64,000 nt of DNA from Balanoglossus misakiensis (lineage: Eukaryota; Animalia; Hemichordata): positions 17,283,028-17,347,027 of the forward strand of contig CM082576.2 in NCBI GenBank assembly GCA_040954595.2, read 5' to 3'. The position numbers and the translations under genes were made by a program. Within the stretch, counting starts at the first letter, position 1. Each line of letters opens with the position of its first letter. Below are positions 544-42,500 of the stretch, in pieces. Below the pieces are notes generated by a model. The model searched no databases and was not told where the DNA came from. It saw nothing but the letters and a program-made list of their open reading frames with translations.

Positions 544-3500
544 GTTGTCATTCTTATGAAGTATTGTCCACCGCCTGTAAAATACTGTGGCACAGCTTTA
601 GATGCGGAGCAGTTGGAACTTCTGAAGAATGTAATGAGTAAAAGATACAATGTAACAACACAGGAGTTGAACCTCAGCAATCTATACAATGATGAAGGTT
701 AGTCACACATGTGACAGTTTATTCTTATGCCTACTTCGAAAAAAACCCACAAGTAATCATATCACTACGTGTACACATACAGCAGAACCTTGATAAGACT
801 CTGTTAGTCCCGAATTGATACCATTATTTTGTATGGCCTTACAAACTGTGCCGGTGACCCCATTCAAACCCTATACATGTACATGTATTATAAATATATT
901 TTATGTTCACAGATCTACAGAGTCAGGGTATCAGGGTTTCTGTCAACAAACAGAATCATATGGACTATGTTATAAAAATCATTGAAGAAAATGTGCCCCA
1001 GGTAAGATGACCTAATTAACCCTAATGCTACTGGGTGTCATACCTGTTTAGAGTGTCAAGTCCCTTAAAATACATATTTGCCACTTTTTCTTCTAAAACG
1101 TATTTTGACTGTCTTGACATGGCTCTCATACGTATTTTGACACACTTGGCAGTTTGAACCCCCCCCCCCTAAAATGTACCAAATCGCAGTGGTTTGCACT
1201 GGTTTGGTTTGAGGGTCTTGTATAAGCCCTACTGATTAACACGCACTTGGCAGTCTAACAGGCCTGGGAGCCAGGATTCTAGGCACCCTGGAAATCAAAC
1301 CAGTTTCAACTGACTTGGCAGAGTTAGGGTTAAAGGGAAAAAGCCACTAAGTTTTCGACAGGGTTAGATCCCAAAGTGGTATACATCCGAACCTGTTTGA
1401 TTCTTTATTAGGGTAATTAAAAATTGGTTATATACCAAAGTTTTGAGCACATATATTAAAAAAATCAGTAAAAAAAGCAATCTGGTGTAGGCTAGTGAAT
1501 ATGTGCAGTAAATTACAATAAATCCAGTAAATGTTGAAACCTGAACGCGTTTGTTTGTTTGTTTATAAACATTACAATTCATCCACAATTCCCTGAAATT
1601 AGATCATTCTTAGAATGAACGAAGCAGCCAACCGTAGCGTAGATGGGGCCATGACAGCAATTGAAGATTCTAGTAGGTCGTGGCGACTGCAGTTGGGTAT
1701 GCTCTGGTATGGGACGACATATTCTCATCAAGGAGGACACCCACACGGCGCGACGACCCCTTCCCTTTAAATTGGCCACTGCTAACTTTATCACTGTAAT
1801 TGTTCTCTGCAGATTCACTCTCTGGACCTAAGTAACAATCGAATGTATTCCTTGGATAGCCTGCAATGTCTTGTTACAAAAGCACCAAACCTAAAGATAC
1901 TTCGCCTTGGAAGGAATACGGTAGGTACATTACTTTCTTCCATTATCAAGCCTTAGAGTGCCATAGAAGTCTGTGGAACGTGAATCCTATGACCCTGAGT
2001 ATGTAGGTTCCTTGGGGTGATCGAAGTAGAGATTGTTCAAATTGGGGTGAAATGTGCATATTTGTAGATTTGGGGCAATTTTTGCCAGTTTTGGTTTTAA
2101 AAATTCTCCTAATCACTTCTTTGATTGCTTTGAAATTTGGTCTGTAGATCCCTGGGTGTGAACTAAATTGAGACGTTCAAATTATTTTTAGAATCAGCAA
2201 TATTGTTTTTTAGAGGCAATTGCCAGTTTTGGTCAAAAATCTTTCCATTATCAACCCGTTAGAGTAATCTTTCCAATTTTTGGGCATCATTATTTCTACC
2301 AAATTCAGCTACGAAATGACAAGGAACTTGAGAAGATAAAGAGATTAAAGTTGGATGAAATTGTGCTCGATGGAAACCCACTCTGTGATAATTTTAGTGA
2401 ACAAAGTTCATACATCAGGTAACACAGTCTTCGGTTGTTGTCGGAAACAATCCCTTTTGTTGTATAAGTATGAGACATGAAATGGAGATATGAAATGGCA
2501 ATGTGTACTGGTATTTGGAACAGAGATACTGACTTCATACTTGCCTCTCATTATTTAAAAATTTGTTTTACATCGTGGAGAATTCTGTAATCATTAAATC
2601 TATTCTCTTGGATCCCACCTTTCTTCTAGAAAACAATTGATTTTCAGTGTGAAGTGAAAATAAAATAAAATACATTTAATTAAGGTTGCACAATATTTAG
2701 TGTGTAGTTATAAAAGTAAAAAAAAAAATCTAAATTCAACTGAAAGAAATGTGACAGAAAATTAAAATGCAAAAAACTTTCACAATATTTGTATGTATGT
2801 ATAAAAGTAAAAAAAAATCTAAATTCACCTGAAAGAAATGTGACAGAAAATGAAAATGCAAAAAACACTTTCTGGAAACAGTGCTCTGAACAGTCACAGG
2901 AATATAAAGCTGCCACTGGTTACAATAGCCACCTTCAATGTTACCAAAGAGACCAAAGTTCACCACAGAAGACCACGATATACCAGGAGGCTACCGGACA
3001 TATGTGAATGAGTCCCTGCACATTTATGTGCAGATGGTAGACTGAACTGTTGTACTGCCCTCTCTAGTTGATTTCCTGGAGACAGTGCCAATGACGGGTA
3101 AGGTTACTCGAGTGGGTAACACCTAAGGCAGGCGCTGTCTTGGTCAGGATTCACTTGTTACAAAGAAGGGCACAGTCAGTCATACATACCACAACTCTAC
3201 CTGCAGTAATGCTTCACAAAGATTGCATGGTATTTTGCAAACGTATTTGCACCAATGCAGACTGCGACAAGCTGAAAGTATTGGCGAAGGCAACCAACAT
3301 ATGTGGTGGAAAATAACGTGTAACTTGGCAGCAAAAAAATCCAACAACATAAAAATACAACAAGAGCACTGTGACTAGCTGGCAGTTCATTATCTGGTAT
3401 CTTTCTATCTATATCTTTCAAAGCAAGAGCAAAAAAAATCAAAGTAAGAAAAAAAAAAACAGCTAAAAATCCGACTTTTATAAAAATCTAAATGTGTACA

Positions 3501-6500
3501 TGAAGGAGAGGGCCAAGGGAAAAGGTTTCATTTACAAGAATGCATCCACTTCCCAAAAATGATAAGTATGAAGCAGATTTGTGTTTGTCTGTACAGACAC
3601 TAAAAGGACAGTATTTGAAAAGAGTACACATTTTCAAATTATGCAAGCAGGTTGTTGATGTTGTTGTTTTGGTCAGTGTTAGTAGCTGACTCTGACTCTG
3701 AATTTGATGTGTTGGAACAATCTGATGGCTATACCCATACAGGACTGTTTAACTTTCTCTAATATTATGCTGAGTGGTTGTAAGTACATCCCACTAAGGT
3801 AAGATTTTATGTTTTACAAATGTGAGGAAGTATTTCAACTGGATTTAGTAAAACATTTATGACAACAAAGCATTTTCAGTCTCCAGAAATGTGAAGCCAC
3901 CCTACCATATAACTTGTATGTCCTACACGTACTTTTTTGTACAACTTGGTATTTTGTGTCACTGGCGCCAAATTTTTATGTCTGCAGGGCCATTAGGAAG
4001 CATTTCCCAAAGCTAGTGAAACTGGTAAGTTAGAAAATTTTTTTTTTTTGCCATTTCACTGAGATAATCCTATTCTAATACATTTGCTACTAGTTTAGCA
4101 AAATCTTTTTTTTTTTTCGCCAAAGGACATTAAGGTTGGATTTCTAACCATTTTGTCATATGATGAGGTTTGTTTCTATCATGAAATTTTCCATTAAAAC
4201 TCGCACACATAACCTAATATTAGACAGATTTCTGACTGTTTATTTCTGTCTGTGTCATCATTACCCCCCCCCCCCCTCCCATTAAAAAACACCAACAGCA
4301 AAATGGGTGATCAGATTTGAACCAAATTTTGTGGCCATTTATTGATGTGAGATGGCAATACGTGTACCTGATTGGATTTTGATGAGCGCTCCTTTCATAT
4401 CGAAGTTATCAAAGATTATTTTTTTTAAATAGTGGTTGCCATTAGAGAGTGACTTTTTCACTAATTTTTCTTTTGTGCAATGCATATGTCACTTCAGTGA
4501 GTGTAATGTTATTTTGTTGCTTGTATTTTTTCCATAGGATGGACATGAGTTGCCACCTTCGATAGGCTTTGACTTGGACGTTCCAGACACATTGCCAGAA
4601 ATCCGAGGAAGTTATTTTGTCAATGATAACGTGAAGACCTTGATCTTGAACTTTTTGGAACAGTAAGTATTCAATCAGACTAATATGACTTCTATTGTCT
4701 ACAGCATGCTTCAGTTATTCAACAAATCAAAAAGCCTACAAGTTTACTAACAAAGTGCTAAACATCGCAGCACTGGGTAGTTATGTATGCAAGCTAATAA
4801 TATTAATAATATTGAGTCTTACATAGCACACATATCCAAAATATGCTCAAGGCTCTTTACAACAATTTCAAGCTCATTTAAATACAAGCTGCCCAGGGTT
4901 CAAGGTATACCCCACATTTCTGATGCTAGGAATGACAATAAAATACATGTACAGTGATTTATTGAAATTATCGTTAAATGGGGAATTTGTGAACTTGTAA
5001 TTTATGAGTGTTATAAATGCCGGAGAAGAAAGCACAGCATTTCTGAGCAAACTTTCATGATTGTTCTGTTTATAGATATTACAGTTGCTATGACTCTGGC
5101 AATCGGCAGAAACTCATAGATGCATATCATGAAAAGGTGAGTATTGATGAAATATATCACACCCGAAAGGATGATCAAGATTGCCATTTGTTCATTGATT
5201 TTCGTTAGTTTTGGCTGTTGCCAAAGAAGTATGAGAAGAATTTCCTGATAACCAGTGTCTGTATGCCAGAGTATCTTTAAATTTAAAACGGACAAAGTCT
5301 CTCTCGTTGCCATTTCCCATTAATTATGTTTGATACAAGACACTGTTTATGTTATTCTACATGTGGATATATAGTGAATCAACGTTCGACCACACACAAC
5401 TTCCAACCCGTTTGTAGGATATGAAAGTAAAAATCTCAGGAACTACTGGTCCCATTACTTTAAAAGTAGCCATGTGGTTATTGTACTCGATCAAGAAAGG
5501 GGAGGTTCTTGCAATTCTAAAACTTCTGCATGTGAGGGACACCAATTAAAGGGACATTAGCTGTATCTTTTGGCTATAATTTTAGTGTTTTTGTTTTGTG
5601 TACCAAATGCAATTTCTTGTTCTACTCCAAACAGCAGTGTGATTTAACCAGCAATCTGCTTGTCAAAATAGCCTGTACGTGTGTAACAACCACTGTTAGT
5701 GTTGACAAATGAATTCTAATCTGGACTTGAATACAAATTTTGCACAATAACAATGCTGACTCTATACTTATAGGTTGTGTTGATAAGCTGGATACTGGGC
5801 ATTTCATTGTGTTTCGGGGATTTGAACAAGAAACTGCAATAGATATCAAAACGAAAAACTGAAAACAGCGAAAAGTTACAGCTAATAAAGCTTTAAGCAT
5901 CTCTTGGAAATTATCTGTGGTCAAATATGGATGTACAGCTGAATTGTAGTCTCTGACTTTGATCTTGTGTCATTTTCTGTAGGCATGTTTCTCCCTGACA
6001 ATACCTCCAGCTCCATCCAAAGATATCCATAGGCCGAAAACACACTCTCTAAGTGGATATGTGCCCTACAACCGTTCTCTCAATAAGATCTTTGATGCAG
6101 GTAAGGTTACATCTCCACTTTCATTTGATTTATAAATGGATAGAGTGACATGTTTTCTTTGAATCCTGCAAAATACAAAATAGATTACCAGAGGGGCGTG
6201 GAATGTGTGTTTTTATTGTCAGTTTTTTAGTCCCCATGGATAATGTCCTGGACATTTATCCGTTCCACCTGCAGCCATTTCTCAGACTTACTTGACCCGA
6301 TTTCATTGAAACTTGTCACATAAAATGTACGTACACATACTGTTTTATTTTATGATAAATCTGATATGCTCGTCGGACAGCCAGTTTAGCTTGTGTGTTT
6401 AAACACAGGTGATCTAATGTTTTACTCATGTATGTCTGTCTGTTAATTAACACAAATGATCTCAAGAATGGCTGAACAGATTCAAGTCAAATTTTGTATT

Positions 6501-9500
6501 ATTATCGTTCATAATTGACGCCGCACAACCTCCTATCTTCAGCATGAATTTGTGTGGCTCCATATAGGACACTTAGATGATGACGTAAGGAAAAAATCTA
6601 ATCACAACGTTCTGGTGTAGTTACAAAAGTGATATATAGATGAAAATAATATTTTTGTTATCTTGTGCAGAGCAAAAGTTCCGACTGTTGAAGCAGAACA
6701 GATTAAGTGTGGTTGCTTGTCTTGATGAACTCCCAGATACACAGCATGACCTTGCATCATTTGTTATAGATGTTAGTATGTTCACCGTAAGTATTCTCAT
6801 CATTCAGCTTTATTTTTAATAATATAAGAATTAGCTAGCCTTATCTGAGATGGTACGGCATTCCAATTTGGTTTAAGAGATTCTGTCCCCTCCATACAAA
6901 AAATGTGAAATTTTTAGTCCATGTCCCTGGTATCTTTTCATATATGGATAGATGCTTGGTTTCCATCACCTTTGAGTGTTGGCAGTTTCTTCGGCTTGTT
7001 TCTACACCAAGTCCACCGAACCCGAGCTGTCTTAAATTCCAGATCTCAAAATTCATTCCGGAAGGCAGACTTGGTGAATTGTGATATCTTTTCTTCCCAA
7101 AGAGGACAAATCACAGTCTTTCAATGACTGTTTCAAATCACCAGCTTTCCATATTAATTCAAAATTTTATAGATATCTAACTTTAGGATTGGCTGCCAGT
7201 GACAGTCCACAGACGTATGATTTGACAGCTGTTGCATCCCCAAAAACAAATTTTGCATGTCTCGTGATAAACAAGGACTTGTCAGCCATAGGCATCAGGC
7301 TTCTTATTTACAGAATTTCTGGTAGCAGATCACTGCTACCATTGCCACCGATTATTTTAATCCATGTGTAACGCATTAATCTGTGATCATGTCGAAAAAA
7401 TAATGAAAACAAATATACAAGTACATGTATACAGTTATTACAACTTTGGGATCATCATTTATTTTCACAGGGCACTCTCTTAAGCTTCTGTGTGTCTGGC
7501 ATTTTCAAAGAAAGTAAGTAGTTAAAGTTTTAATAGTTACAGCTTTACTTTCTCCAAGTAATTCTCAGTTGAACCACAGGGAACTCAGGCTCATAGTTGT
7601 GGTAAAATGAATAAAAACATAGTTTTATTATTATATTATGAATAAAAAATGGAAAAAATATTAAAAATTATTATTATTATTATTATTATTATTAGTATAT
7701 TTGTAGTAGTTCTTGTTATCTATCATGTGTTAAAATCCAACATACCTATGCATTCTGTCTTCTCCCGGCCCCTAACACGTACTGTACTGGCCGACCTATA
7801 TACTCTACCCTAAAAAAAGACAAGGGATGCAACTTGTCTCATACCCAACTGATTTTCACTCGCCAAAAAAACACCAAGTCTGCGTGGGACGAGTCTGATG
7901 ACCTATATCTGAGCCGACGAATTTGATACACGCTACGCGATTGGTTGATTTCAAATTTTGACTCACGGGCAGACGAGCTGGAGGTTTCACTAAGAGATTG
8001 TTGCAAGCAATGCCAAAATACATCGCGAAAAACTGGATTTTCCAGCTTTATCTACGATATGAGGTACAGTACGGATCAGGATTGTCGAGTATGACTACTG
8101 TAAGTTGGCCCATGTCGAAATTTAGCGATTCCGATGTTGACTTGGTGTGTTTTTTGGCGAGTGAAAATCAGTTGGGTATGAGACAAGTTGCATCCCTTGT
8201 CTTTTTCTTAGGGTAGAGTATATAGGTCGGCCAGTACAGTACGTGTTAGGGAGAAGACAGAATGCATAGGTATGTTGGATTTTAACACATGATAGATAAC
8301 AAGAACTACTACAAATATACTAATAATAATAATAATAATAATTAATAATAATAATAATTTTTAATATTTTTTTCCATTTTTTATTCATAATAATAATAAT
8401 AAAACTATGTTTTTATTCATTTTACCACAACTATGAGCCTGAGTGCCCTGTGGTTGAACAAGAACATAAAGCATTTTTAAAAATGTGAAAGAAAATACAA
8501 TGCCAATCATCTTGTTTTCTCTCTCCTGACTTTAGTGAACTCTAAAGATCCGCACAACGCATCAATCCGATCGTTCTCAAGGACATTCCTAACAGTACCA
8601 GCTGGCTCTGGGTAAGACATGAATGACTTTTGTCATTAACACTTCATCTGATAGTTTAGGAATCCTTTTGGTCAAAGTTCTATCAATAACTCCAATCCTA
8701 CACTCCCTCTTAGGAGATTAGTGAGTTCTACTAAAATTCACGCTAAACATTTGATTGATTCAAAGTGTTTTTAGATAGAAAAGCCCATTAAAACTTATTT
8801 CTATGTTCTATTTTAAGTTTTCTCCAAAATGAGAAAAATACACACATCGAAATCACATTGATGAGTGTACCGGTATCCATGGCATGCTCTTGTTTGGCAT
8901 AGTGCACACACATGTACATTGGAACATTGATACATATTGTCTGACTCTGCCCTGAACTTTTGTATGTAGTGTGGATAATTATTTTGAGTCACCAGTGAGT
9001 TTGTTGAGTCAATGGCTTGTCATATGGGCTTAGTGGCCGGGCACACTGTATCTGACTATAAAATTTCAGCATTGTAGTTTGGCATTAATGGATAAACTGT
9101 GAACCAGGAAAATGAAGTAAAGTTTATGAAGAATGTGATTGGTGGTTTTATTTGTTATTCCAAATACAACCCAATATATGAATGAGCAGTGCTCATTACA
9201 ATATATGAATGAGCAGTGCTTTATTTGAATTTTAGATATTGCATAATAAATTGCTTTGGATAAAATATAAATTGATTGTTGGAAAACTGAAATGTTTTAT
9301 TTACATTATTTCAGACTTTCTATAATCAATGACCAGCTCAGCATTGGACGACCATCACTAAGTCAACTCAAGGTAAAATTTTATTTTATTTTGTCTGTAG
9401 TCTAGCAAGTTTACAAACATTTGATGCAAGGTGTTTGAAATTCTATTTAAAATTAGCTTAAGCTTTCATCTGAACACAGAATTCAGATGCACATTTTAAG

Positions 9501-11986
9501 AAATATTGCTGGCAAAGTTGTCTAGTTTACACTTTACAGTGATGACTGCCTGTTGCTGTGTGTTTTTAAGGTCAGGTTTGTATAAGTAATAAATGGCCAA
9601 TAAAAGATGACACTACAGCATTTTCCTGTCAAAATATGACAGATAAAATACCTTTTCTTATGAAAAGCAAAATATACACTTGTCTATATGTGTCATGTTT
9701 AATATAATGCGCCCTAAGGTGGTGATCTGTAGTACATGTGTTTGCACAAGGGAGGAAGGTCGATAGAGTGTTATGGTGTGAGGTCGTTTGGTTTAGGTGC
9801 CATGTCCTGTTGACCTATTTGAACTGCTAATTATCTGTACAGTTGTTCTAATTATACTTTGTGAGGAGGAGTTAATCCGATGATTGATAGCTTCTTCAAG
9901 AGTAGTGGGATGTGTCTAACCACAGGAATTTATTCAGGGAAAGTGGAGAAATACTTATATGATAGAAACCGAATAAGTTAGTTGTCTGTCAACTCTTCTG
10001 TGTTTATCTTACCGATACGATTGTAACCTGAACACTACGACTTCTCTGCTCGTACACAGTATAAACAATGGCACAGTATAATGATATGCATGATAAAATA
10101 TGCCCTCTTTTGGTGAACTCTTTCTACATTCTACCTTGTCTTGCACTCGATACCGTACTTCCACAAAACATTGTATGTCTTCGAGTATTCATGAAATATA
10201 CTCATTTTTTTTCCAATGTGAGAATTTTGTGAGGATTAATTATATTCATGGGCCTACATTTTTGGTAAGAGACTATTCAGGTATCTACTCAAGTCTTACT
10301 TCAATATCAAATACTTCCTTTCTGTAATATCCCTGTTATTATTTGTGTGTGTTTAGGGAGCCTTTGCAACACCTGCACCAACTCCATCAACAAGTCCAGT
10401 GCCACCAGAAGTACAAGCAGCCACCTCCTCACCTCATCAAATTCAACAGATGCATTCAGTAACACAGTCACTACCACCCACGATCAAAACTGAAACTCCA
10501 GAATTGACTCCTGAACAGCAGCAGATGGTGCAAAGTTTTTCCAAACAGTCTGGTATGAATCTGAAGTGGTCGTACAAGTAAGTTTCTCATTTGTGAGCTT
10601 GCATTTACCGTATAATGATGTTTCTCTTTCTGAATTGGCATTTGCCGTATAATGATGACAACAGTAACATGCTGTTACTGCAGTAGCACTAAACTGAACT
10701 GCAATGGACAAGGCAAACACTGTACACTGAAATACCCCACTATAGCTTTCACCCAAAACTGACATCACAACACAGTGCTTATAATGAGCAGACCCACAGT
10801 GTCCCACAAACCCTGATTCTGCAGCGAGGAGGTGTCATCCGCGATGATTTCTTTTCCCTTTCTTCAAAAAAATCCATTTATCAGAAACCACTTGTCTCTT
10901 CTTTGTAGTTTGATCTCAGGGCTTAAGGGATGCCGGTATAGTGTGCCAACATTATGGCTAAAATATCAATATTGTATTGGGGGATGTTTGCCATTTTACA
11001 GTCAAAAGAGTCTAATTGATTAATATGAGTCCATTCATAACCATTATACATGCTAGTCACTTTTGGATCTAACTGTTCCTGTGAAATGGGAGCTCAGTAG
11101 CCTTGACTCTGTTTTTATCTGTACAAGCTATCCAACTAAATATGCTTAGTATTTTAGCAATGTGTCTAACAGTGAATTCTTTCACAGAAAATATTTGTAC
11201 ATCTATTGGTTTTTGACCAAGTTGACATTGTTAAAATATAAGTGACCTTCCCCTGCATGAAGAAAAAAATCTCTCCTCCCCAGGTGTCATTTTCCATATT
11301 TTAGAATATTTTCATTTTCCTGTTTGTAAAATATACTGTATATCGATGAATTTTCAATGCAATATAGAGTGAAACTGGGTGTTCCCCATCCACCTATTTT
11401 TTTAAAAAGATGGTATAAAATCTTATGGACAGTGCTGAGTCAGCACTTTTCTTGCATTCACTCCAACTCTATATTGCTGGAGCTGGGTGTGAACTGGTCA
11501 AAAACTTGACCTGTCCTTGGGATGTTTATTGCTTGCAAATTGCATTCATATTTCACACTTATGTTACAAAGCTGATCAAAGGAGAGTGTCCTCCTAATGC
11601 TAACTGTTACACATATAATTATCCTTGTATTTTTAAGGTGTCTCGCAGAAAATGGTTGGAATTATGAAAATTCTGCAAGAATATTTACGGCTTTACAGGT
11701 GGGTAGCTTCAGTTCCCAAGGATTTGATTTGCAGAACGTGTGCATTGGGTCTGTCATGGTTTATACAGTCATAGTCTCTGACAAATTGGTACATTTATGC
11801 ACGTCAATAATTTGATGCAAGGCAGGAACAACAGGAGCTGAATATCAACACTTGAGTGAGTGTGTGTGTGTGTATGTCATTGAGCCACTTCTTGAAAGTA
11901 TATATTATTATTATTATTATCATTGTTTGTTTTGTTTCTCATTACAGGCAAAGGGTAGTATACCCCCGGAAGCTTTTGTGAAGTGA
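544..11986 (+). CDS. NXF1: Nuclear RNA export factor 1 (TAP), 5'-partial; RRM end, LRR, NTF2-like and UBA domains; 15 exons in window
   Basis: GT-AG exons join in frame: 544-697 (..[22 protein letters not shown]), 913-1001 (..IIEENVPQ), 1813-1920 ([22 protein letters not shown]), 2309-2418 (..[10 protein letters not shown]), 3988-4024 ([12 protein letters not shown]), 4538-4662 ([12 protein letters not shown]), 5076-5136 ([18 protein letters not shown]), 5983-6100, 6671-6786 (..[17 protein letters not shown]), 7471-7513, 8536-8611 ([11 protein letters not shown]), 9315-9372, 10357-10577 (..[15 protein letters not shown]), 11638-11698 (CLAENGWNY), 11948-11986 ([12 protein letters not shown]). 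Motifs and intron positions resemble vertebrate NXF1. Confidence 0.96.
1020..1329. mobile_element. piggyBac-like MITE
   Basis: TTAA|CCCTAA ... TTAGGG|TTAA: short TIR with CCC/GGG termini and TTAA on both sides. Confidence 0.55.
1334..1766. mobile_element. Kolobok-like non-autonomous element
   Basis: TTAA|AGGGAA ... TTCCCT|TTAA. Its right part recurs inverted at ~35758-35975; the ORF-track peptides at 1579-1818 and 35528-35944 share the same sequence. Confidence 0.6.
2709..2866 (+). repeat. A-rich direct duplication (~68 bp x2) in the NXF1 cassette intron
   Basis: TATAAAAGTAAAAAAAAA..TCTAAATTCA.CTGAAAGAAATGTGACAGAAAAT..AAATGCAAAAAAC at ~2709 and ~2800. Confidence 0.85.
3074..3149 (+). promoter_or_regulatory. 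CTE-like RNA hairpin (candidate NXF1-binding site) in the NXF1 cassette intron
   Basis: GCCAATGACGGGTAAG (3087-3102) and ACCTAAGGCAGGC (3121-3133) match the two strands of the type-D retroviral CTE core as I recall it (GCCAATGACGGGTAA / ACCTAAGACAGGC). Closing stem AGACAGTGCC (3080-3089) pairs with GGCGCTGTCT (3131-3140); apical stem GTTAC/GTAAC. Confidence 0.88.
5550..5893. mobile_element. Kolobok-like MITE (related copy at ~15912-16172)
   Basis: TTAAAGGGACATTAGCTGTA...TACAGCTAATAAAGCTTTAA; a related sequence starts at 15908 (TTAAAGGGACATCAGCTGTAAC). Confidence 0.6.
7575..8452. mobile_element. Foldback element with ~310-bp TIRs and a 7-bp TSD (P/Galileo-like, non-autonomous)
   Basis: Arms 7575-~7880 and ~8139-8452 are near-perfect inverted copies; CACAGGG...CCCTGTG termini; GTTGAAC duplicated at 7568-7574 and 8453-8459. 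Confidence 0.85.
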
Positions 11987-14439: not shown

Positions 14440-17400
14440 TCATACAGGATCAATGAATGGGATTTCAATGGTTGTCAAGGGAACACCTCCACCAATCATA
14501 GACGCAGTGCCACTGTAGCTAGAATCTTCTATCATTGTAGCCACAGCATCGCCAACAGCTTCAGGTCTGAAAAAAGAATTGGTGTCAATATTTTAACAAA
14601 CCATTTGCACATCACTCATTTTGTCATTGTCCAAGATGATGTTTTTCCAAATAATACCATCCTCTCACATGAACCGATTTTGCGCGATGTGGGAATGAAA
14701 ACGGATTTATAATAAAAATATTTTTAGCTCTGCTGTCAGAAACGCAGAGCTTATCAGATAAGATGATTGTCGATGGGTGTTTGTCAAAACTTTTCTTCTT
14801 CTCTGTGAGACCACTGGTCTGATTGCTTTCAAATTTGGTCTGCAGGTAATTTGTGGGGGTGACCTAAGTTAATACACATCGCGCCATTGGATAACAATAA
14901 GCGCGTGTTAGCAAAAGAACGCTTTGTCATCCAATCAGTGCTCGCGTCATATACAGCTTTCGATTCAGTGAGAGTGTGGGATCGATTTGTTCTCACACTC
15001 TGATGCCACACTCACAGGGTGCCAGGAGTGTGAGAAGTGCTTGTCTTGACTTACTCTATAGCAGGTGCCCTTTCCAAGTCTTCTGTGATCTCTTTGACAT
15101 ATCGGTTTGCCTCAGATGGATAAGTTTTGAGAGCAGTTAGTGTGTTGACCATACCTGGACAGATAGCTGCTACTCGTACATTATTTTCAAGCACCCGAGG
15201 TTCATTCTGTAAGAGTATACACATTGATTTGTCAGACACATTTGTGTTAGATTAAAGGAGAGGACATCTCAGCCCCTTCGTGACAATAATGAGAATTCTA
15301 CTACAAATTCTTTGCAGACTCAATGTTATTTAAAACGTATTCTGAATGTTTCATTACAAATGGCTTTTCAAAATACAATATATTTTGATTTTGGCAAATG
15401 CAAGTACATGGGTTATTCATTCTTGCAGGACATTGAATATAATTCTTCAAGGGAAATTTTCAATCCCTGGTTCTTGAATAAGGTCCTGCTGACACTGAAT
15501 GTTTACATTATGGAAACCCCTAATATTTTCCATTGAAACATTTCGTTTTAGATACAGCTGTTAAAGTTGTTACACATTTAGCTGAGATTTTTCCAATTAA
15601 TTTTTTTGTGTGGATTTCAAGAGAGCTTTCTTTTATTCAGTGAACCAGTCGTACACAAACTGTACATTGTTCAGAATACATTGTAATTTGCTGCAGATCT
15701 TTTCTGTGCATACTTACTGCTACACTTCTTGTATAGCCAACGACACCATGTTTTGTGGCTGCATAGACAGGAAGTAAACTATTGGGAAAGATACCTGCAT
15801 ATTAAAAATAACGAATGTGTTATGACATTATGATTGACACAGCCACACTAGTCCACATCGGCCAATGTCTTATGCACATTGAAGACAAAATTGACTTAAT
15901 GAATATATTAAAGGGACATCAGCTGTAACTTTTGGCTTTATTTTCAGTATTTGTGTTCTGTGTACCATATGCAATTTCTTGTTCTACTCCAAACATCATG
16001 CTGTTATACCCAGTACTCCACTTGTCAACATAGCCTGTATGTGTGTAATTGTTATTGTTGACAAATGAATTCTAGTCCGGACTTGAATTCAAAATTTGCA
16101 CAAAAACAATACTGAATGTATACATATAGGCTGTGTCACTTAAGATAGTGAAAAGTTACAACTAATGGAGCTTTAATTTCAGCTCTGAGATGAGGCCAAT
16201 CTGTTGAGTATGTTACACTCTTCAATAGACAATCCAGACGAGCGTAGTTGTATATATATATGGTTCCTTTGGTTTATTGAAGTACTCTAACTTCCAAGGA
16301 GTTTAAGACTCTAACACAACGAGTTTACTGTCAGTTCATGCACACAGAGGCACTAGACCACACATCTGACATTAGCCAAGCCGCACACTGCACTCAAGTT
16401 TTCCATGTGCTTCTCAAACTAACCGGCATGCTACAATTATAATAATTGTCGCCACCTCTTTGCCAAATACAGATAGTGGTATACCTCCTCTAACTACATA
16501 TAAGGATTCTTGCTCATTACAAATCAATTAATTTAGCTTAAGATCAAACAGATAGTCAATGATGGACATTTCCTTAAACCCTGCAAAATTCCAGACTTGC
16601 CCAAATTCCAGTGTTTCCCAATGGAGCAAGTTTGTTTTGGTCACTCATAAAACTCTGTCAAACTTTGAGACTATGCTCTGTGTGTGATCAGATGGAAGTC
16701 ATTAAGTCAAGTCATTCTCAAGGCTTTACGACTATAATGTCAACATTTAGGTTACCAAGTAGATTTCGTTGGTGTGGGGCAGGACTTTACTGAAATTGAA
16801 TTTTGTGTATCAATTGTATACCCTACACTCTCCCCCTGTAAAATAAATGTCGTCCCAGACATTTCCCTATCAGAAGCTAAAAAAATCAATTCATGCATTC
16901 TAAAAAAAAACACATTCTAGTACTAATCAAAACATGCAAGTAATATATCAAAACACGCAAGTTTATATTCAGTTCTGAGTTCAGTGTTCATTGTTCATTC
17001 TTAACAGTTCATTGTCTATTTTCTCTGCAGATTAACACATTACTCCACGCTGTTGTTGCATATACTGTTGATTATTCCAAAACGTTGCTGGCAGTGGGTA
17101 CATCACAGGTTGCAGTGGTACATATGGTGTATTCCACAATGGTACTGGATGAGTAGGTGTTTGCAGTATTGGAGCTACCATTGCTGCGTTGATTACTGGG
17201 TTGATGCGTTGATACTCTGACTGTCCTGGTAAAGTGTATGTCAGGGTTGCTGGTGGATGTCTGTCCCTGGTAGGATACCTTCGTGGTTGTGCTTCCATCT
17301 CTGCGTTGTCAGGCAATCCCTCAGGTGGTTGTAGCTGTTCAGTAATTTCCACATTTTCTTCTGCAGATATGTCATCAGCCGCTTCTGCAGATGTGTCATC

Positions 17401-20400
17401 AGCCGCTTCTGCAGATGTGTCATCAGCCGCAGCCACATCATTTTCAGGTACTATATCCCCTGGTACAGGTGTGGTGGTCGACACATCTTCTGCTGTCTCA
17501 CTATTGGTGTCATGAATCAGTTCAGTATCAGGAATCAGTTCAGAAACTGGTGTAATGTCAGTTTCTGGTGATGATGGTGTATTTCTTGCTTCAAACTGTT
17601 CCGCCAGTGGGTTCAAGGAACTTTTCTCAGCACCCACTTGTTGATTGTGTCTCCGCTGGTGCTGCCTGTCTTCAGTCCATTGTCTCTGGATGATTGGTCT
17701 ATAGAAATAACCATCTTCATCATCACTTGACGACTCATCATCTTGTAGGTCAGGGTCACAGTCAGGTTCAGTCAGTGGTGTTTTATTTCTCTTCCTAGTA
17801 TTTCTTGATGTAGTGACTGGAGTAATTGCTGGTGTTGATTCCGCCTCCATTGGTAGGTCATCACAAGGCAGTAAGAGATTTCGGTGTAGTACACGTTTTC
17901 GCCCCTCACCTCGTTCTGGCTTGATTTCATACACTGGACTGTCTTCGCCCTTCCTACGTGTTACAACATGGATTTTCTGTTCCCAATAGGACCGTAGTTT
18001 ACCTGGTCCACCACGTTCTGTCAAGTTTCTGACCAATACTCTGTCCCCTGGTAGAAGTACAGTACTGCGTTGTTTCTGGTCATAATACACCTTCCCTCTT
18101 GCAGCTGACTTTTTAGCACTTTCCGCTACCAGGTCATATGCCTCCTTCATTCCCTTGTGCCACTTGTCCACATAGTTTTGATAACTGCATGGCTGTGACT
18201 TTGGATGTAGGTCGAACAGGATGTCAATTGGCAGTCTCGGTGTCCTCCCAAACAGTAGATAGAATGGTGAGTAACCAGTGGCTTCATTCCGGGTACAGTT
18301 GAAAGCATGTACTACTTTGTTGACATGGTCTTTCCAGTTAGATTTTTCTTTTTCCGGAAGTGTTCTCAGCATGGCTAGAAGCGTCCTGTTCATTCGCTCA
18401 CAAGATCCATTGCCCTGGGGGTGGTACGGTGTTGTCCTTGATGCGTTGATACCACCTAGCTGCTGTAGACGCCTGAACATGTGATTTTCAAACTCTCCTC
18501 CCTGATCATGGTGGATTCTGGCTGGAAACCCAAAGCGTGGTATGAAGTCATTGAAGATCTTGTCAGCCACTGTTTTTCCAGACTTATTTCTGGTAGGATA
18601 GGCTTGTGCAAATCGGGTGAAATGGTCGATGATTACTAGGATGTACTCATAACCACCACTACTTTTCTCCAGATGAAGGAAGTCGATTGATACCAATTCA
18701 AAGGGTGATGTAGTGACTATGTTGGTGAGTGGAGCCCTGGTGTTGAAGTTGGGTCGCTTTTGTTTGATGCACACGCACTGTTTGGTGATGTACTGTTCGA
18801 TGTCACGTTGCATATGAGGCCAGTAGAACCGATCTCTTGCTAGGGTGACTACCCTTTCTACTCCAAGATGACCCATTTCTTCATGAAGTTCTTTGTAGAC
18901 TAGTTGTCTGTACTTCATTGGCAGGATCAGCTGGGATCTTGTTGTTGTCTTTCTCCGCAACACCCCATCTTCGCCAATTACCAGATAATGCCACTCACGC
19001 ATTAACACTGTGGTTTCATGTGGTTCACCACGTCTTTCTTCACGGGTTGGACGGCGTCCACGGTTACGATATGCCATCAGTCGGCTTATAGCAGGATCCT
19101 CTTGTTGGGCTTTTCTTATTTCTTCAGTGCTGAAGGACTGGACTGGCTGTACTGCTGGACTGAAAATGCCTATGTTTTCATCCAAGACAGTTGGATTTGT
19201 TGTCACTGCTGTCAGCCATGTTGCTTTACCAACCTCCATTGCATTTGCTGAGTTGACCGTTGCTTCAATTACATCCTTTGAATATTCTTCACTGCATTCA
19301 TCCATGAATTTCTCTACATCAAGTGGTAGCCTAGATAGTACATCAGCATCAATGTTGATTTTTCCGGGTCGATACTTGATGGTGAAGTTGAAATCAGCTA
19401 GTTCTGCAACCCATCGATGTCCCGTGGCATTCAGCTTTGCTGTTGTAAGAACATATGTCAGGGGGTTGTTGTCAGTATAAACGGTGAAAGACGGTACATA
19501 GGACAGGTAATCTCGAAACTTCTCTGTTACAGCCCACTTCAGTGCTAAGAACTCCAATTTGCCAGAATGAAGGTGGTAGTTCTTCTCAGCCGGTGTCAGA
19601 GTTCTTGATCCATAACCAATAACCCTCAGTTTATCATCTTGATATTGATAAAGGACTGCTCCCAGGCCGTCATGTGAGGCATCTGTATGGAGTATAAGTG
19701 GTTGACTGTAGTCTGGATAAGCCATTACTGGTGCCTTTATGAGATGTTCAATCAATTGGTCGACAATCACCTGGTGGTCATCTGTCCATGTAATTGGTTG
19801 ACGTGAATGTACTTGTCCTGTCATAGTCTTCTGCTTCTTTACTGATTTCGATTTCTTCTTCGCTGTATTTTCAATACTGGCCGTGGATGATGTCATTAAG
19901 TCATACAGTGGTCTTGCAATTCTTGAGAAATCCTTGATGTATTGTCGGTAGTAACCAAGGAAACCTAACAACTTCCGGAGTTCACCGACATTGGTTGGCT
20001 TCCTCTCTTTCAAGGCAACTACTGCAGCTGTGTCAGCTGGATCCACCCTGTACCCATCTGCTGAGACTATTTTTCCCAAATAGCGCACTTTTCTCTTGAA
20101 TAGGTCACATTTCTTGGGTTTTAGCTTGATGCCATGCTGCTGCAGTCGTTTTAGTACTTTCCTGATGTTTTCAACATGCTCTTCAAATGTCTTGCTGTAT
20201 ATAAGGATGTCATCCAGGTATGGTATGCAAATTACATAACTCAGTCCATCCAGGCATTCTTCCATGTGTCGTTGGAATGCAGGTGGGGCATTAGCCAGGC
20301 CAAACGGGATCCTCACCCATTCGTACAGTCCCCATGGTGTGACAAATGCAGTCAGTGGTTTACTTTCTTCCGACATAAACCCTTGGTGGTATGCTTTGCC

Positions 20401-23400
20401 TTGATCCAGTACAGAAAACCAAGTATTTCCTCCCAGCCCATCAAGAATATCTTGGATACGTGGTATGGGTTGTCGGTCTGGCTTGGTCTTCTTATTAAGT
20501 TCTCTGTAGTCTATACAAAGTCTTAGACTTCCATCTTTCTTTCTGACACATACCACTGGCGATGAATATGATGACTTTGACTTGGTTATCCAGCCTTGGT
20601 CAATCAAATCCTCCAGATATTCCTTTACTTCCTGGTAAAGTGGGCGGGGTATTGATCTGTAACTTCTCTGCACTGGCTCCTGATCTGTTAGATCAATCCG
20701 CAACTTCAAGTCGTCAATACACCCAATATCGGTATCAGTCTTGGCAAAAGCTCCGGCTTCATCTCTCAGCATTTGTCGAACTACCTTTTGCTGTGACTCA
20801 GTCAAGCTGCTCAGATCAACAGGTGGTTCCCACGTTTCTTCAGGTGCTGGCATTTTATTTTCATCCCCCCGGGGCTTTGAAGTCATTTCTGAATGAAGAC
20901 TGTTCACCTCAGCTTGTTTCTCCACTTCACGGACTTCCAGTGGGGTGAATGACCGGACCATTTGAATTGTCCCTAACACTGTCCTATTTCTGAGGACAAG
21001 GTCATGTTTTGTTGTGTTGTGTACAGGAATGGTGACACGATGTGATGATCCTCTGGAAAGCTTGGTGAATTGTTCTAACACCTCCAATCCATCAGGCCAG
21101 GTATGTTCCACATTCGGTTCAAATACCACTGGTCTTTCTTCTGTGATTGGTCCCGTATGCACTGAACACTTCACCTCAACCGTCCCTCCAGCCGGAATTC
21201 TAACACCACTTCGTCCAACCTTCACCAGATAATGATGATCATCTTCACTGTTGTCCTGAATTAAATTCACGACTGCTTTTACATCCTTCTCTGGAATAGT
21301 AGGCAGTGCTGCCGTAATGACATTAATGAGCGCAGTATTTGGAATTTGTCCAGGTACCCCAGTGCTGTAATCTCTACAAACTTCTTCAATTACATTATAA
21401 CTAATAATTGGGTAGTCAGTCTCTGTTGGTTGTCCCCGGCTTACCAACACTGGTACTTTCAACTGTCTTTGATTTTCACCATCGCTGATCAGCTGGAAGT
21501 CAACTTCTACCCATCCGCTATATGGAATATCAGTTCCATTCATTGCTGTTAAGTTCAACTTTGTACTCATTCCCAAAAGTTCTTCAATTGGTCTGAGTGG
21601 TACATCTGAGAGATTTTTCAGCTTCCATCCATGTGTGATAACAGAGACTTGTGACCCGGTATCCCACAATGCCTGGTACTTCTCCCCTTCGATGTTACAC
21701 CAAACCAAACATTTCTTTCCAACCAATTTCATCAGCTTCTCTTGTCTAGCTGGCGTCAGATGACATGGGAATGACATCTTCACACTGCTCCGCTGACTGT
21801 CTTTCCTGTCCTCCTGGGCCTCCACCTGTTGTATCATATTACAGTATACCCGGTGCTTTTCCCAGTGGGCTTTCTGACAATCCTTCGAACAGTATGTACC
21901 AGCGTGACATGCAGAACATTGTTGAAAACTGGTAACATCATCTTTCTGGCAATGGTTACAATGGTGGGACTCTATGGTATCTTGGCTGGTTATTCCCTGT
22001 CCCCTGGGGCCAGCCTTTTCCCGTTTCCCGACTGCTTCTGACTGGTTTGTTTACAACCTCTCTTGAAGTGTTCGGTACTCCCACACCTAAAACAATGCTT
22101 ACAGTCTGGTTTTCCGTCTCGGCGACAGCTAGTACAGCCATAATTGGTTCTCTTCCCTTGGTTACCTCTATTTGAGTTGACAGCAGGGTCGTTGACCTTT
22201 GGAGTTGACACTGCTTCCAAATACAGATAGTGGTATACCTCCTCTAACTACATATAAGGATTCTTGCTCATTACAAATCAATTAATTTAGCTTAAGATCA
22301 AACAGATAGTCAATGATGGACATTTCCTTAAACCCTGCAAAATTCCAGACTTGCCCAAATTCCAGTGTTTCCCAATGGAGCAAGTTTGTTTTGGTCACTC
22401 ATAAAACTCTGTCAAACTTTGAGACTATGCTCTGTGTGTGATCAGATGGAAGTCATTAAGTCAAGTCATTCTCAAGGCTTTACGACTATAATGTCAACAT
22501 TTACGTTACCAAGTAGATTTCGTTGGTGTGGGGCAGGACTTTACTGAAATTGAATTTTGTGTATCAATTGTATACCCTACAAGTACGTGTAGTAGCAGAT
22601 ACTATCTAAGACGATCATCAAACTGGTAACAGATACTGTTTAAGACAGATGCAGATACCCTGGACGTACCATTTGCGACAGTCGCTGAAATTGACTTGTC
22701 ACAAAAGTGTGAGTCTGGTGCAGATAGCCTTCTGAGGCAATTTTACATACCCCAGTATCAAATGAGCCATCCTATTAGAACTGATAACATATCTATCTAT
22801 TCATCCATCCATCCATCCATCAAACAAGAAAGAAATGTAATGTCGGAGACCTTAAATGAAAGCAATGTACTCTTTTCAGAGAACTGAAACTATCATGTAA
22901 TATAGCACATTCAAGTGATCAGTGTGGACATACCTGCAAACGAGGATGTATTTATAACTACGCCACCATTTCCACCATTTTTGGTTCCAATAAATTCCAC
23001 TCCAAGTAGGGTACTATTGATAACACCTGTCTAGGAGCAAAAACAACAGAAATCCTGTCACTTAAAATTGTGCAAGGTCGCCCCAAGTTTATTATCAAAC
23101 TCAAAAGAATATTGTGAAGTTTTCTTGATAAAAAAAATAGGTATGAGAAAAAGTTTAGACCTCATTTTTAAAGCACATATGGTACTACTTTCTCACACTG
23201 ATGCACTACAGCTGGACTGCCCTTATCACAATTCATGAGAAATCATATACATGTACATGTACCTGTAGATAGGAATACTCAGCCGATTTTACTCGCACAT
23301 TTATTACGTATTAAAGTAATAATGAGTTGTAGACACTTACCAAATTAACAGTGATCATTTCTTCATACTGTCTTTCATTGACAATTCCAGCATTGTTACT

Positions 23401-36528: not shown

Positions 36529-39500
36529 CTACTCAAAAGACAGCATACAAAACACTGATGTGTACGCGTGCATCAGTTCAAACTTGGGATCCATGTTGCC
36601 CACGCAATGGCCACACTTCAAACGTTCGCATCCAATTTCACCATTCCCAAAGAATCCAAAAAGTGGCGTCTTGGGAAAGACACTCTTGAATGCCATGCTC
36701 TCCACATTATGTTCATTGTAGTAGTAATGTCCTCGTCCAATGCAGGCAAACATGAAGGCGATGCTCTTGTTCTCGTTGAGGCCCACTCGTTTCAGTTTTT
36801 GAATCTCTGTCTTGGCGTGATCTGGTTTGCTTACTTTGGAATCCAGAAGGATAGATGCAGCTTTCACATTTGGACCCGAGAATCCGATACCCAAAATTCC
36901 CGTCTTCCTCTCTTCCCTACAAATGCAACAAAAAGATTGTATTGTTAGCAGCTTCAAAAATTTTAATGTAATCAGTTAAAATAATGTCTGATTACTTGCT
37001 CTAAACATGAATTTTTTTTTAAAAAGGTCCCCAGTGGTGCAACAACTTGAAATGGAACTCTTCCTTAAATATCAGAACTTGATTGACACAATTACTTCAT
37101 TCTTTTAACGTTGGGTTGGAACAAATAATATCCTTGCGTGAAAGTACAGTAACTTTGAAGTAGTTCACCACTTGGAGTTTGGTTTTTACCAATACTTTTG
37201 TGATATGGACAATAAGAACTTTGGGGGCCTGCACTCTGGTCAATCACTCAGTATATTGCTACAGCTGTACAGTCTATGCTTCATGCACTCATCACTCCCG
37301 GAGTGTGGATATGAAATATGAGGTATGACACAACCACAAAGCAACCTTTAAACCTTTAGGTCTTAAACTCATGACCCTTACCACCATTCTATATTTGATT
37401 GGCCGATTCACACTCTCTTTGGGGGAAGACACTAACTGAACCACAGAAGAGGGGGGGGGGGGGGAGGGGTTTGAGGTCAAACACTGCACGTGTTAATTAC
37501 ATTGCCCGTTAGTCCCAAGGAGACTAACTACATTTTTGTCGCAGATGTCAGGGCTCAAAATTAACATTTTACCTTGGTAGTCAGAGACTACCACATACCA
37601 CATTATGTAAATTGGTAGTCAGCCATGCAATCTTGGGTAGTCACAATTTTTTTTGTACAGACATTGTACATGTAGTAAAATATTTTTTGAAATCAAAGGA
37701 GTTAAGTGTATTTTTTTCAGCAGCATGTGTACGCCTGTCAGTAATAGTGTTGACACATGTCAGTGCAATTTTCTGCCTATTCAATAGCACAGCTGAAATG
37801 GCTGCACCTACTGGTAGTCAGTGGTGACTACCAGTTACACACTGTAGTAGTCACTAAGTAGCAACTGGTAGTCAGTTGGCAAGTGACTACTGCAATTTCA
37901 AGCCCTGGATGTCACAGTTGAATGGATTAGTCACAACAGAATACCATTATCGACTGTGTATGGTAAACCTACCTTTCCAGAGTCCTGGGGGTCACAAGGT
38001 CATTAGCATATCCTCCCGCAATGACCACTGCCTGGTTCTTTCTCCTGAAGGCATCGTCCAGATAGTTAACAACCTGTCCCATTGCTTGGAAAGCATATCT
38101 GTTGAAACCTATGAGTAGGATGCATTTCATGTCAGCATCTTCTGGAATTCCCATGGTGCTTAAAATGTTCTCCCGATGACAGCCTTGCACAAACTGCTTC
38201 TGTGAAATCTTCAGGGTATGGACGTTGACACCGTCCAACTTTGGCAGCAGAATGCAGACACAGCTTTCCTTTTGGTTTTCTGATTCCGATGTGTGTGACA
38301 GGTCTGGAGAAGTGCCTAGATTACAAAACAGATGATTGCTGGTCAGTTCTCATTACCAACATGATGAAATGATCAACAAAGACTTGCAGCTGTGAAATCA
38401 AACTAGATGTGCAAGGGGAAAATCTCTGTATAAAGTTCAAATAAAATCAGTTATGACCTTTTAGATAAAATACAAAGTACAAGATTCTATATTATTATTT
38501 TCACTATGATTTTGACACATTACAAATGTATATGGACCTTGCCCCCCAACCCCCCCCCCCCCCCAACCATCAGACAGGCATTAAATACAATATAATGGGT
38601 TCTGTCATGATTTATACATAAGGTCACTTAGATAACCCCTGTGCACCTGCATACCAAACTTAAAGGCAATTGTGCATGCAGACTCCGAGAAGATTTTTGA
38701 CCAAAACAGACAATTTCGCCCTAAAATACAATATTGCAGATTGTTATCAAAATTTGAACATCTCATTTAAATTACACTCCGGGATCTGCAGACCAAATTT
38801 CAAAGTCATTGGCCAAGTGGTTTCAGAGATTTTTTTTACCAAAGTTCTTTCAGAGAAAAAAAGACAAGTGTTGACAGACGCAATTCAATGACAGACACTC
38901 ACCCTACCTGATAAGCTCCACGTCCCTGGCAGTGGAGCTAACAACAAAATTTCAAAAGTTCCTGTTTTTGCCTAAAGTAACCTTTTAAAGGGACCAAGTC
39001 TCTCTCTCGCTGCCCCTTTTTCATTAATCATGTTTGATACAAGACATTGTTTATGTTATTCTACATGTGGATATATAGTGAATCAACGTTCGACCACATA
39101 TAACTTCCATCCCACTTGTTGACACGAGAGTGAAAAACTCACCAAAATGAATAATCGGTGTTTATCATTTATTCATTTTGGCGAGATTTTTACTCTCATA
39201 CCCTACAAACGGGTTGGAAGTTGTGTGTGGTCGAACGTTGATTCACTATGTATCCACATGTAGAATAACATAAAGTGTCTTGTATCAAACATAATTAATA
39301 AAGAATGGGCAACAAGAGAGAGGGAGACTTTGTCCCTTTAAGCATACTTACAAACAACTCCGGGTGTGTTGAAACCAATCAGATGGCAATCTGCTGGTAA
39401 AGACTGGTGCAAATTGGATTCGATGCTATTGCCGGCTGAAGCACCATTTTCAGGAAATAAGGAATCTGCATCAGGCTCCATGAATATCAAGGCTAATCTT

Positions 39501-42500
39501 GGAATACTGCAACAGTTCTAAAAGCAAAGAATAAAAGTGTACTCTTAGTGAGCATGCATCCATCCAAAGTTGTTGATTGCATAGGCATCACACACAATGT
39601 TAGCATTTAGAACGCAAGTTTCTCTAGCTGCCTAAGTTTAAACACTTGACAGCCACAAAAATCATTTGCCTACTATATGACTACAATCTGTGTTATTATT
39701 TAATGTTTATTCCATGTCATATGGGAAACAGGAGAGTAATAACAGTCAGTGGATTTTCATTTGCAGTTTTATCTATGACGGGTCAATCACACAATTCATC
39801 TAGACAGATGGGGGGGGGGGGGGGGGGGGGGGAATCACCCCTAGTTTGGCGCCTCCCAGCAATTGTCACTGGAGATATACCATTTCCCTTGCTAGAGTTG
39901 AATCCCCCTCCTGCCCCCCCCCCCCCATATACTCATAATCATATAGAAAGTTCCATCACCCAATATTTATTTCTCTTTGATGTTTTTAATAAAGAATTTT
40001 TAAAGTTGTTGCCCTATGCATCACACCAACAACCCATCAGGAGTTGTTCCTGATTTCCAGTTCAATACTTTCTTATCACACAGCCAAAGTTTGCACCAAA
40101 AATCATGTCCAATGTCACCATTTCATAGCCCACAAAAATGAGCTCTGGCAAACTGTCTATGCCTTCACCAACCTACTTGAAGAGGATCATACCTGTAGGC
40201 ACAGGTCTAACTCTTTAGCAAATGATGATCTGCTCCATGTATCATCTATGTCTTCCTCCTCCTCATCATCATCAGAGTCTGTATCCACATTGTTATCCTC
40301 CTCATTTCTGGTCTGAATTGCAGGATCATAGACAGCCCATGACACACTTTGCCGGCGTCTTAAAATCTTTGTGGCAACTGTGCACCAACATCTGCACACC
40401 CTGCAAAATTAGAAGATGCATCATTAATTATTGCCTTGTATTGCAGTACTAAAAATAGGGTCAAACTGTGAATTTTATGGCTGCTTCAGACAGATTTTGC
40501 ATTTTCTTGTAGGTTACAGCATAGCTATTGGTTAATGACTGGATATCAAAAGACTGGTGGTATGGCTTACAAGTTACACTTACTACGGACAAAAACAAAC
40601 AAGCAAATAAACAAACAAACAAACAAACAAACAATACATGTAAAATACCAAACATCAATTTACAATCATTGCCTGTTAGCAGTTCCCAGGTATTGTCTAT
40701 AACATTGTTCAAATTCTTCAATCCAACTGAAATTTAGGGCAACATTTGCGGAACAGATTTGAGCCTGTATCCACACTTACTGGCACCTAAAAATTGTTTC
40801 AACTCACATTTTGTCTCCATTGACTATACTCCAATTACCCACAAACCACCATATTATAGGCTGCCTGATTGCATATGATCTCGACCCTTTTTTGTCCATT
40901 TTGTTTGATATAAAAAGTTGCCTTTTTGACTTCTTGAAATATGGGTAAATACTGGTCACCTGTAAACAAGCTCCACTTTCCTTGTGGAAAGACTAAATGA
41001 AACATTCAATAAAAGATTTTGAGGCAAGCATACTGTTACCTAATGGGATCTTGATTAACGGGACCTTTCATATAAGATAGAGCTAACAGCGTTTACCTGT
41101 TCTGACCATGTGTTTGTGCTATTGAAGTTGGCATTTTGTCTAGAGGTCACTAAGAAAATTATTTCTTTACATAGTTAATGCTTTACAGTTTTGAAGTTAC
41201 ATGTATCATTATTTTGTACCCTGAGAGACTTCCATGTAGTCTATTATCACAGAAAGGTAAAAAAGAGTGACGTTGTCCCTTTAATTTATAAAGCATAGGG
41301 AAGTGAGTCAGGCAGTGCATCCCTGGAGTCTATCATGCCTATTATGCCATGGTGCCTTGTTTGACAAAGTAAACAAGAACCGTTGTTTCTGTCTTGGTGA
41401 TTTGCATTTTACTTCCACATTCTTGCATTGTTGAAATTGTGTTTTCATTAATGTGCTCAATCATGCCTCATCTGGGAATTTTTTTTACAACGCACAATCC
41501 CTTTATCCTGTTATTCCATGTGTGTCCATGCACATGTACATTGTACAACTGTACATGGTTTTGAGCCAGCAAAATCAGACATAACAGTCATGCAGTTGAA
41601 ATATACTCTAACTCCCCCCCCCCCCCTGTGGGCAAGTAGATTTGTGTATTGGGTAAGTACCAAAACTGAGGCTAGTATCCATAAAATTTAATTTCACACT
41701 GCATTGAAGGCACTTTTTCTGTTCTGCATTATTTGTGAGTAATTTAATACAACCAAAAATACTCTGACCGTCTTCCTGGATGCCAGGGTTGACGTGTGAA
41801 GGTCCAACCAGAGACGTTCAATCAATGGGGTAAAAACATCTATTTTGGGTTTACAATTTCATGACAATGTTAATGTTGAACATGCAGAAAGGGGGAGGGT
41901 ACCTAAAATGTATGAGGATATCGAGGGGGAAGATCTGGCAATATTCATTATCATACATATTTATTCAAAGTTGTTTTCTGATTACTATTTTATTAATAAT
42001 AACATAGGGAGGCAGAATTTTTTCTGAGTTCATTATGAGTTCATATACATACATTTACATAGAAACAAAGGTTTTACTTGTTAGATTTTACAATCGTTTC
42101 ATCATTTACGAGACAATTCTTAAAAATGTGATTTTGTATTCAGGAAATATCACCTGACTGTAAAATCAGTTCTGGAAAAAATTACCCTCCTCTAAAATAG
42201 GTTTGTAAAAAGTCGGAACCACCCCTGATTCCCCCGGCCCACCCAACCTGTAAATACTGAAGGCTCACTTAGACGGCAAAACACAAACAGTACACACAAA
42301 CAACACGCATCGCAGCTGTACCGTGGGGGGGGGGGGTGATTACTCTCACGGACAGCCTGCAGCCCCCCACCCCCCCCCCCCCCCAACGGAGATGCGTACC
42401 ACAGCTATTAAAGCACAGAGCTGGAGGCCCATACGTGACTGTGGCTATTAATACGGTCGTTTGTGTGAAATTTATTGACATAACATTTCGGAAAACAGGA

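Follow-up and report, generated by a model that had tools for sequence, protein, structure and literature searches.

A CTE-type hairpin in an NXF1 intron of an acorn worm closely matches the core of a retroviral CTE

The 64,000-nt stretch of DNA analysed here (the window) carries, within an intron of its NXF1 gene, a single-loop hairpin that is nearly identical to the loop region of a natural retroviral CTE, in a host that its genes place among the enteropneust hemichordates. By analogy with vertebrates, the element is probably the cellular CTE of NXF1 intron 10, serving NXF1 self-export. Under this mechanism intron 2419-3987 would be retained in the NXF1 transcript, the RRM-LRR domains of NXF1, together with NXT1, would bind the 6x6 internal loop, and the bound intron-retaining RNA would leave the nucleus; the exported RNA would then either be degraded or yield, on translation, a short NXF1 that stops at the LRR, giving the export factor NXF1 feedback control over its own gene. 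Such function is described for zebrafish and human, where NXF1 and NXT1 bind the loop, the intron-retaining mRNA is exported and short NXF1 is made (PMC4338338, PMC5170612). The cellular CTE is reported from mammals, zebrafish and coelacanth, and not from birds, reptiles, C. elegans or Drosophila (PMC4338338).

The gene and the exons around the intron are as follows.

544..11986, + strand: NXF1 gene, 15 exons in the window; LRR, NTF2-like and UBA domains; 471 codons in one frame
2309..2418, + strand: 110-nt exon, closing the leucine-rich repeat domain of NXF1
2419..3987, + strand: CTE intron, GT-AG, 1569 nt; orthologous to human NXF1 intron 10
3988..4024, + strand: 37-nt exon, directly after the CTE intron

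All 15 exons are AG/GT-flanked and, when joined, form the single open frame of 471 codons. The initial annotation had named the gene NXF1 and placed an intron at 2419-3987 between the 110-nt and 37-nt exons, and both points were upheld: Pfam LRR_NXF1-5, NXF_NTF2 and TAP_C were matched on separate single exons, solved human NXF1 was the top match of the 110-nt exon (E 4e-9), the NXF1 tree agreed, and the intron coordinates were exact. A homology search with one 41-residue exon gave 0 matches among 5 candidates. No NXF1 5' exons were found within the 64-kb window, and they probably lie upstream of it. The "cassette" wording for the 110-nt and 37-nt exons reportedly comes from Mamon et al. 2013.

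The CTE intron is the longest among the 14 NXF1 introns in view, and contains a ~92-nt tandem duplication (2686-2866; 90% identical). The human alignment of the 110-nt exon stops at chain position 244 of a chain spanning residues 96-555, i.e., at residue ~338, an estimate allowing for a single additional N-terminal residue in the solved chain. In human short NXF1, intron 10 codes for 18 of the 356 residues (PMC5170612), and since 356 minus 18 is also 338, intron 2419-3987 sits at the human intron 10 position, as expected from the orthology to the CTE-bearing vertebrate nxf1 intron that had been proposed. If the intron were retained, the junction codon would be followed at once by a stop (AGG TAA); however, all window NXF1 introns reach a stop within 38 codons if retained, so that an early stop alone is weak evidence. 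The intron's own donor, CAG/GTAACA, is off-consensus.

Within this intron, the element consists of the following parts.

3074..3149, + strand: extended basal pairing round the CTE core, by computed fold; limits as in the initial annotation
3080..3140, + strand: CTE core hairpin with a single loop, 61 bases, by fold and sequence match
3080-3089/3131-3140, + strand: outer stem, 10 bp with one U-G, by computed fold
3090..3095, + strand: 5' strand of the internal loop, AAUGAC, identical to the viral CTE
3096-3099/3121-3124, + strand: inner helix GGGU/ACCU, 4 bp, by computed fold
3125..3130, + strand: 3' strand of the internal loop, AAGGCA, a single base off the NXF1-binding motif AAGACA
3095..3104, + strand: donor-like site CGG/GTAAG with its GT at 3098, inside the CTE element

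Above the inner helix stand an AAG bulge, a 7-bp apical stem and a 4-nt loop. The MFE and centroid folds of the hairpin coincide (z -4.4; 0 of 200 shuffles as stable), and all 14 outer and inner pairs flanking the loop have probabilities of 0.91-1.0 in both 240- and 400-nt context. Thus a single 6x6 internal loop between two helices is predicted by MFE, centroid and pair probabilities alike, and the fold first described (10-bp stem, AAUGAC/AAGGCA loop, GGGU/ACCU helix, apical stem) was recovered in full. The element lies 672 nt into the 1569-nt intron, closer to the 5' splice site than to the 3' one. Stable folding does not by itself mark out a CTE: among 249 90-nt windows of the other 13 NXF1 introns, ten had z <= -2.5 and four had z <= -3.6, the window over the CTE scoring -3.6 in the same scan. 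Rfam, searched over the element, gave no match even at E 10. A second hairpin in the CTE intron (3768-3850, + strand; z -4.7 on + and -1.2 on -) buries a consensus donor, AAG/GTAAGA at 3799/3800; it was set aside as a notable element because four of the 249 other-intron windows score similarly and the sequenced part of the intron in the second NXF1 gene described below (L014) holds no counterpart.

Sequence comparison ties the hairpin to retroviruses. A pattern of 23 core bases plus a variable gap, derived from the window and allowing only A or G at the position of the AAGGCA change, retrieved two viral and 15 metagenome loci (17 in all), whereas 596 billion bases of prokaryotic genome sequence contained no match. 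In one locus, L016, two copies of the CTE core stand just downstream of an env gene and fold into a rod with two AAUGAC/AAGACA loops; the locus is called retroviral on account of this gene and the two-loop fold rather than its record title. A two-loop rod is what is described for the type-D retroviral CTE (PMC4330390). The two loops of the viral CTE appeared only when the whole element was folded, the separate halves giving no signal. Over the strands of the outer loop of L016, the window agrees at 30 of 31 bases (16/16 on the 5' strand, 14/15 on the 3' strand); the 23 pattern bases match by construction, and the bases outside the pattern match at eight of eight. The match to the MPMV CTE core stated in the initial annotation, with its A>G exception, therefore holds against a natural retroviral CTE. 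A chance match can be ruled out: two 23-nt retroviral core blocks with <=1 mismatch are expected 9e-8 times in the CTE intron, and the prokaryote genomes yielded none. The next-best match to the retroviral core elsewhere in the window has six mismatches. A covariance model found the window CTE at 35.5 bits (E 1.7e-6; next best 12.5 bits), a result that is partly circular because both training rows had been found with the window-derived pattern.

The sole mismatch, AAGACA>AAGGCA, lies in the NXF1-binding loop, AAGACA being the NXF1-binding motif (PMC4174252). The window thus keeps five of the six motif bases, while L014 and another locus, L006, keep AAGACA. Across the 17 loci AAGACA occurs in 21 of 25 loop-like matches, and AAGGCA in three loci (L007, L008 and L013). 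Across most of 36 mammals PMC4338338 reports no inner-loop changes. The unusual G in the window loop thus counts against the export reading.

The 6x6 loop of the type-D retroviral CTE (MPMV, SRV-1; L016 as example) is closed by GCC/GGC and GGGU/ACCU, as in the window. However, the window element is not a type-D retroviral CTE: the latter is a two-fold symmetric rod with two loops at the 3' genome end, whereas the former has one loop in a host intron. The window element likely acts in the manner of a single half of the viral CTE.

The host is not a vertebrate. Among 31 matches, the FBXO22 exon was 80% identical to Ptychodera flava, 68% to Glandiceps and 67% to Saccoglossus; identity to vertebrates did not exceed 48%. 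A tree of 22 rows grouped the window NXF1 with Glandiceps (support 100/99), and constraining it with six jawed vertebrates was rejected (p-AU 2e-6). FBXO22 identities and the NXF1 tree, which was built without lamprey or hagfish NXF1, together rule out a vertebrate host, and the initial guess of a non-vertebrate was correct: these genes identify the host as an enteropneust hemichordate. The FBXO22 exons occupy 36532-43202 on the - strand, with a FIST_C domain in the exon scanned. Elsewhere in the window, an unbroken frame of 1672 codons at 17035-22050 (- strand) resembles the pol of LTR retrotransposons (RT, RNase H, integrase) and carries a MYND zinc finger at its N-terminal end; the stretches near 16578 and 22332 are alike, which suggests LTRs. 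Fragmented frames at 61350-62736 (- strand) resemble what we take to be a Tigger/pogo-type transposase.

A second animal NXF1 gene carries the element in the same place. L014, a metagenome contig, holds six exons of a divergent NXF1 and is the sole NXF1 gene among the 15 metagenome loci. Its last three exons (89, 108 and 110 nt) have the window lengths, retention again gives Arg-stop (AGG TAA), and a CTE core, with AAGACA, lies 906 nt into the intron after the 110-nt exon. Comparing the window intron with the 17 loci by blastn, the CTE was the best match, and for L014 it was the sole match listed (E 0.001). No 37-nt exon was found in L014, a contig that covers only the first ~1.9 kb of the intron. 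The single 154-nt exon at 544-697 of the window corresponds to two L014 exons (78 + 70 nt), the L014 intron between them being absent from the window gene. Thus conservation in another animal's NXF1 intron, which the initial annotation had called for, was found.

As to the source of L014, its protein (186 residues) is closest to an unnamed protein, then to Lingula, Mytilus, Owenia and Haliotis. Of the named rows, a short signature of L014 recurs in nine of the 11 lophotrochozoans and in none of the others. In a 28-row tree (42 relative rows minus 14), L014 fell on the lophotrochozoan side with weak support (70/92), and its grouping with vertebrates (p 0.004) or with deuterostomes (p 0.018) was rejected. 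The groups tested were named after the first tree had been seen, the group label of the unnamed neighbour was assigned by the analyst, and the tree was built without sponge, bryozoan, phoronid or flatworm NXF1; for these reasons L014 is placed as a spiralian, i.e., protostome, animal only as likely.

Among the window, L014 and L006, the four pairs adjoining the loop are identical, while the outer and apical stems differ yet still pair; eight of 24 consensus pairs are changed on both sides. The alignment is ambiguous, and covariation over three rows is only suggestive of kept pairing. Over ten rows, covariation of the core pairs did not exceed that of shuffles (97 and 125 of 500 were as high); the core pairs are invariant partly because the loci were chosen by that very pattern.

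The remaining loci are diverse. No NXF1 exons were found in L006, L007, L008 or L013 (896 six-frame pieces). Ten of the 15 metagenome loci are linked into a single family, and both members scanned have retroviral pol/integrase frames; the ten (L001-L005, L009-L012 and L015) look like endogenous retroviruses, with tandem CTE-like cores and loop variants. L008 (2256-2371) and L013 (955-1070) carry a 116-nt element, the two copies being 86% alike, with AAGGCA and a longer apical arm. The L008 copy adjoins spectrin-repeat exons, and the L013 copy lies downstream of a stretch that we take to resemble the end of LINE-1 ORF1; the element is possibly a non-LTR retrotransposon with a CTE. L006 (570-615, - strand) has a well-formed single CTE in AT-rich DNA, with no NXF1 exons in 2.4 kb, and may be a third animal NXF1 intron. 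L007 (2555-2593, - strand) matches the pattern with no supporting outer stem, and this match may be due to chance.

Three other explanations compete with this one. The element could be a CTE homologue that acts mainly on splicing or decay, its donor binding U1 or defining a poison exon, with NXF1 binding tuning intron removal more than export. CGG/GTAAG lies inside the invariant block while the intron's own donor is off-consensus; a pyrimidine-rich acceptor ends at 3067 (AG 3066-3067) ahead of the donor at 3098, and the resulting 30-nt exon would bring an in-frame stop after one codon. PMC4338338 itself points to conservation of the 5' splice site and proposes that U1 binds there, but the same study found nothing to show its use in NXF1 genes; moreover, the acceptor is not evidently conserved in L014, and conservation covers both loop strands rather than the donor alone. 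We regard a mainly splicing or decay role as unlikely, though it is the strongest of the three competitors. Slightly less likely still is a decaying relic, i.e., a genuine homologue of the CTE in which, along this lineage, the loop change abolished NXF1 binding. This reading draws on the position of the sole difference from the viral core, in the named NXF1-binding motif; against it, apart from that change the core is intact, with near-perfect stems, in an intron otherwise devoid of similarity to L014, and AAGGCA also occurs in L007, L008 and L013 (loci of unassigned function, found with a pattern allowing only A or G there).

An independent gain, by arrival of a mobile element in the intron or by convergence since NXF1 selects the sequence, appears very improbable. 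CTEs do move, as 12 of the 15 metagenome loci look mobile (ten of retroviral type, with L008 and L013 as a further family). However, vertebrates (PMC4338338), the hemichordate and L014 have the element in the same intron, for which several separate insertions would be far less parsimonious, and the window has a single copy, around which neither repeats nor retroelement remains were found. An inherited cellular CTE serving NXF1 self-export is the reading we prefer.

The vertebrate intron 10 CTE agrees with the window element in gene, intron position, single internal loop and location nearer the 5' splice site, and likewise has an embedded donor-like site near the loop and an early stop on retention (PMC4338338; PMC5170612). 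The two, compared through the description of the vertebrate CTE, differ in that the window host is a non-vertebrate and its loop reads AAGGCA; furthermore, human short NXF1 gains 18 intron-coded residues, whereas the short protein predicted from the window gains none past the junction codon. For flies, PMC8151460 notes an intron-containing sbr transcript and leaves undecided whether this is specifically targeted; PMC4338338 found no CTE-like sequence in Drosophila or C. elegans, whereas the window intron has the CTE itself. Among 146 aligned NXF1-like representatives, 24 end within <=30 residues of the end of the 110-nt exon, those named including a chimaera and two insects (P0155, P0167). These short endings fit a wide retention of the intron and could also be truncated gene calls. 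Since insects show short NXF1 while no CTE was found in Drosophila, retention may not need a CTE, a point against the export reading.

No description of an invertebrate CTE, of which the initial annotation had known none, was found in the literature searched, in which subscription papers were largely out of reach, so that a prior mention is possible. The words "invertebrate" and "lamprey" do not occur in the available text of PMC4338338, and PMC5095910 and PMC11459146 mention, in the text available, only the vertebrate element. The window adds a non-vertebrate member to a known kind of element; the deepest cellular CTE published, in the literature searched, is that of bony fish (PMC4338338, in its available text). 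From the acorn worm copy and that of the likely protostome L014, it follows that the CTE device likely predates vertebrates: as far as the sequences tell, the hemichordate copy makes the cellular CTE no younger than the deuterostome ancestor, and L014 probably pushes it back as far as the ancestor of bilaterians. The absence of the CTE in flies and nematodes is then probably a loss. If of bilaterian age, the CTE is one of few non-coding elements alignable over that distance; a survey of such deeply conserved DNA does not mention NXF1 in its main text and one supplement (PMC10735318). The idea that the cellular CTE was a source of the viral one gains from an older host element, but it was already in print (PMC4338338, Discussion), where a host-gene origin of the viral CTE is argued, and the hemichordate copy itself is not a likely donor to mammalian retroviruses. 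The finding thus strengthens the published case for retroviral capture of a host element.

Taken as a whole, it seems reasonably probable that the CTE is a Precambrian RNA element, NXF1 self-export a feedback loop ancestral to bilaterians, and AAGGCA a functional loop variant occurring in nature. Natural variants are thereby supplied for mapping NXF1-RNA recognition, and invertebrate embryos are opened for tests of the retained-intron transcript and the short NXF1.
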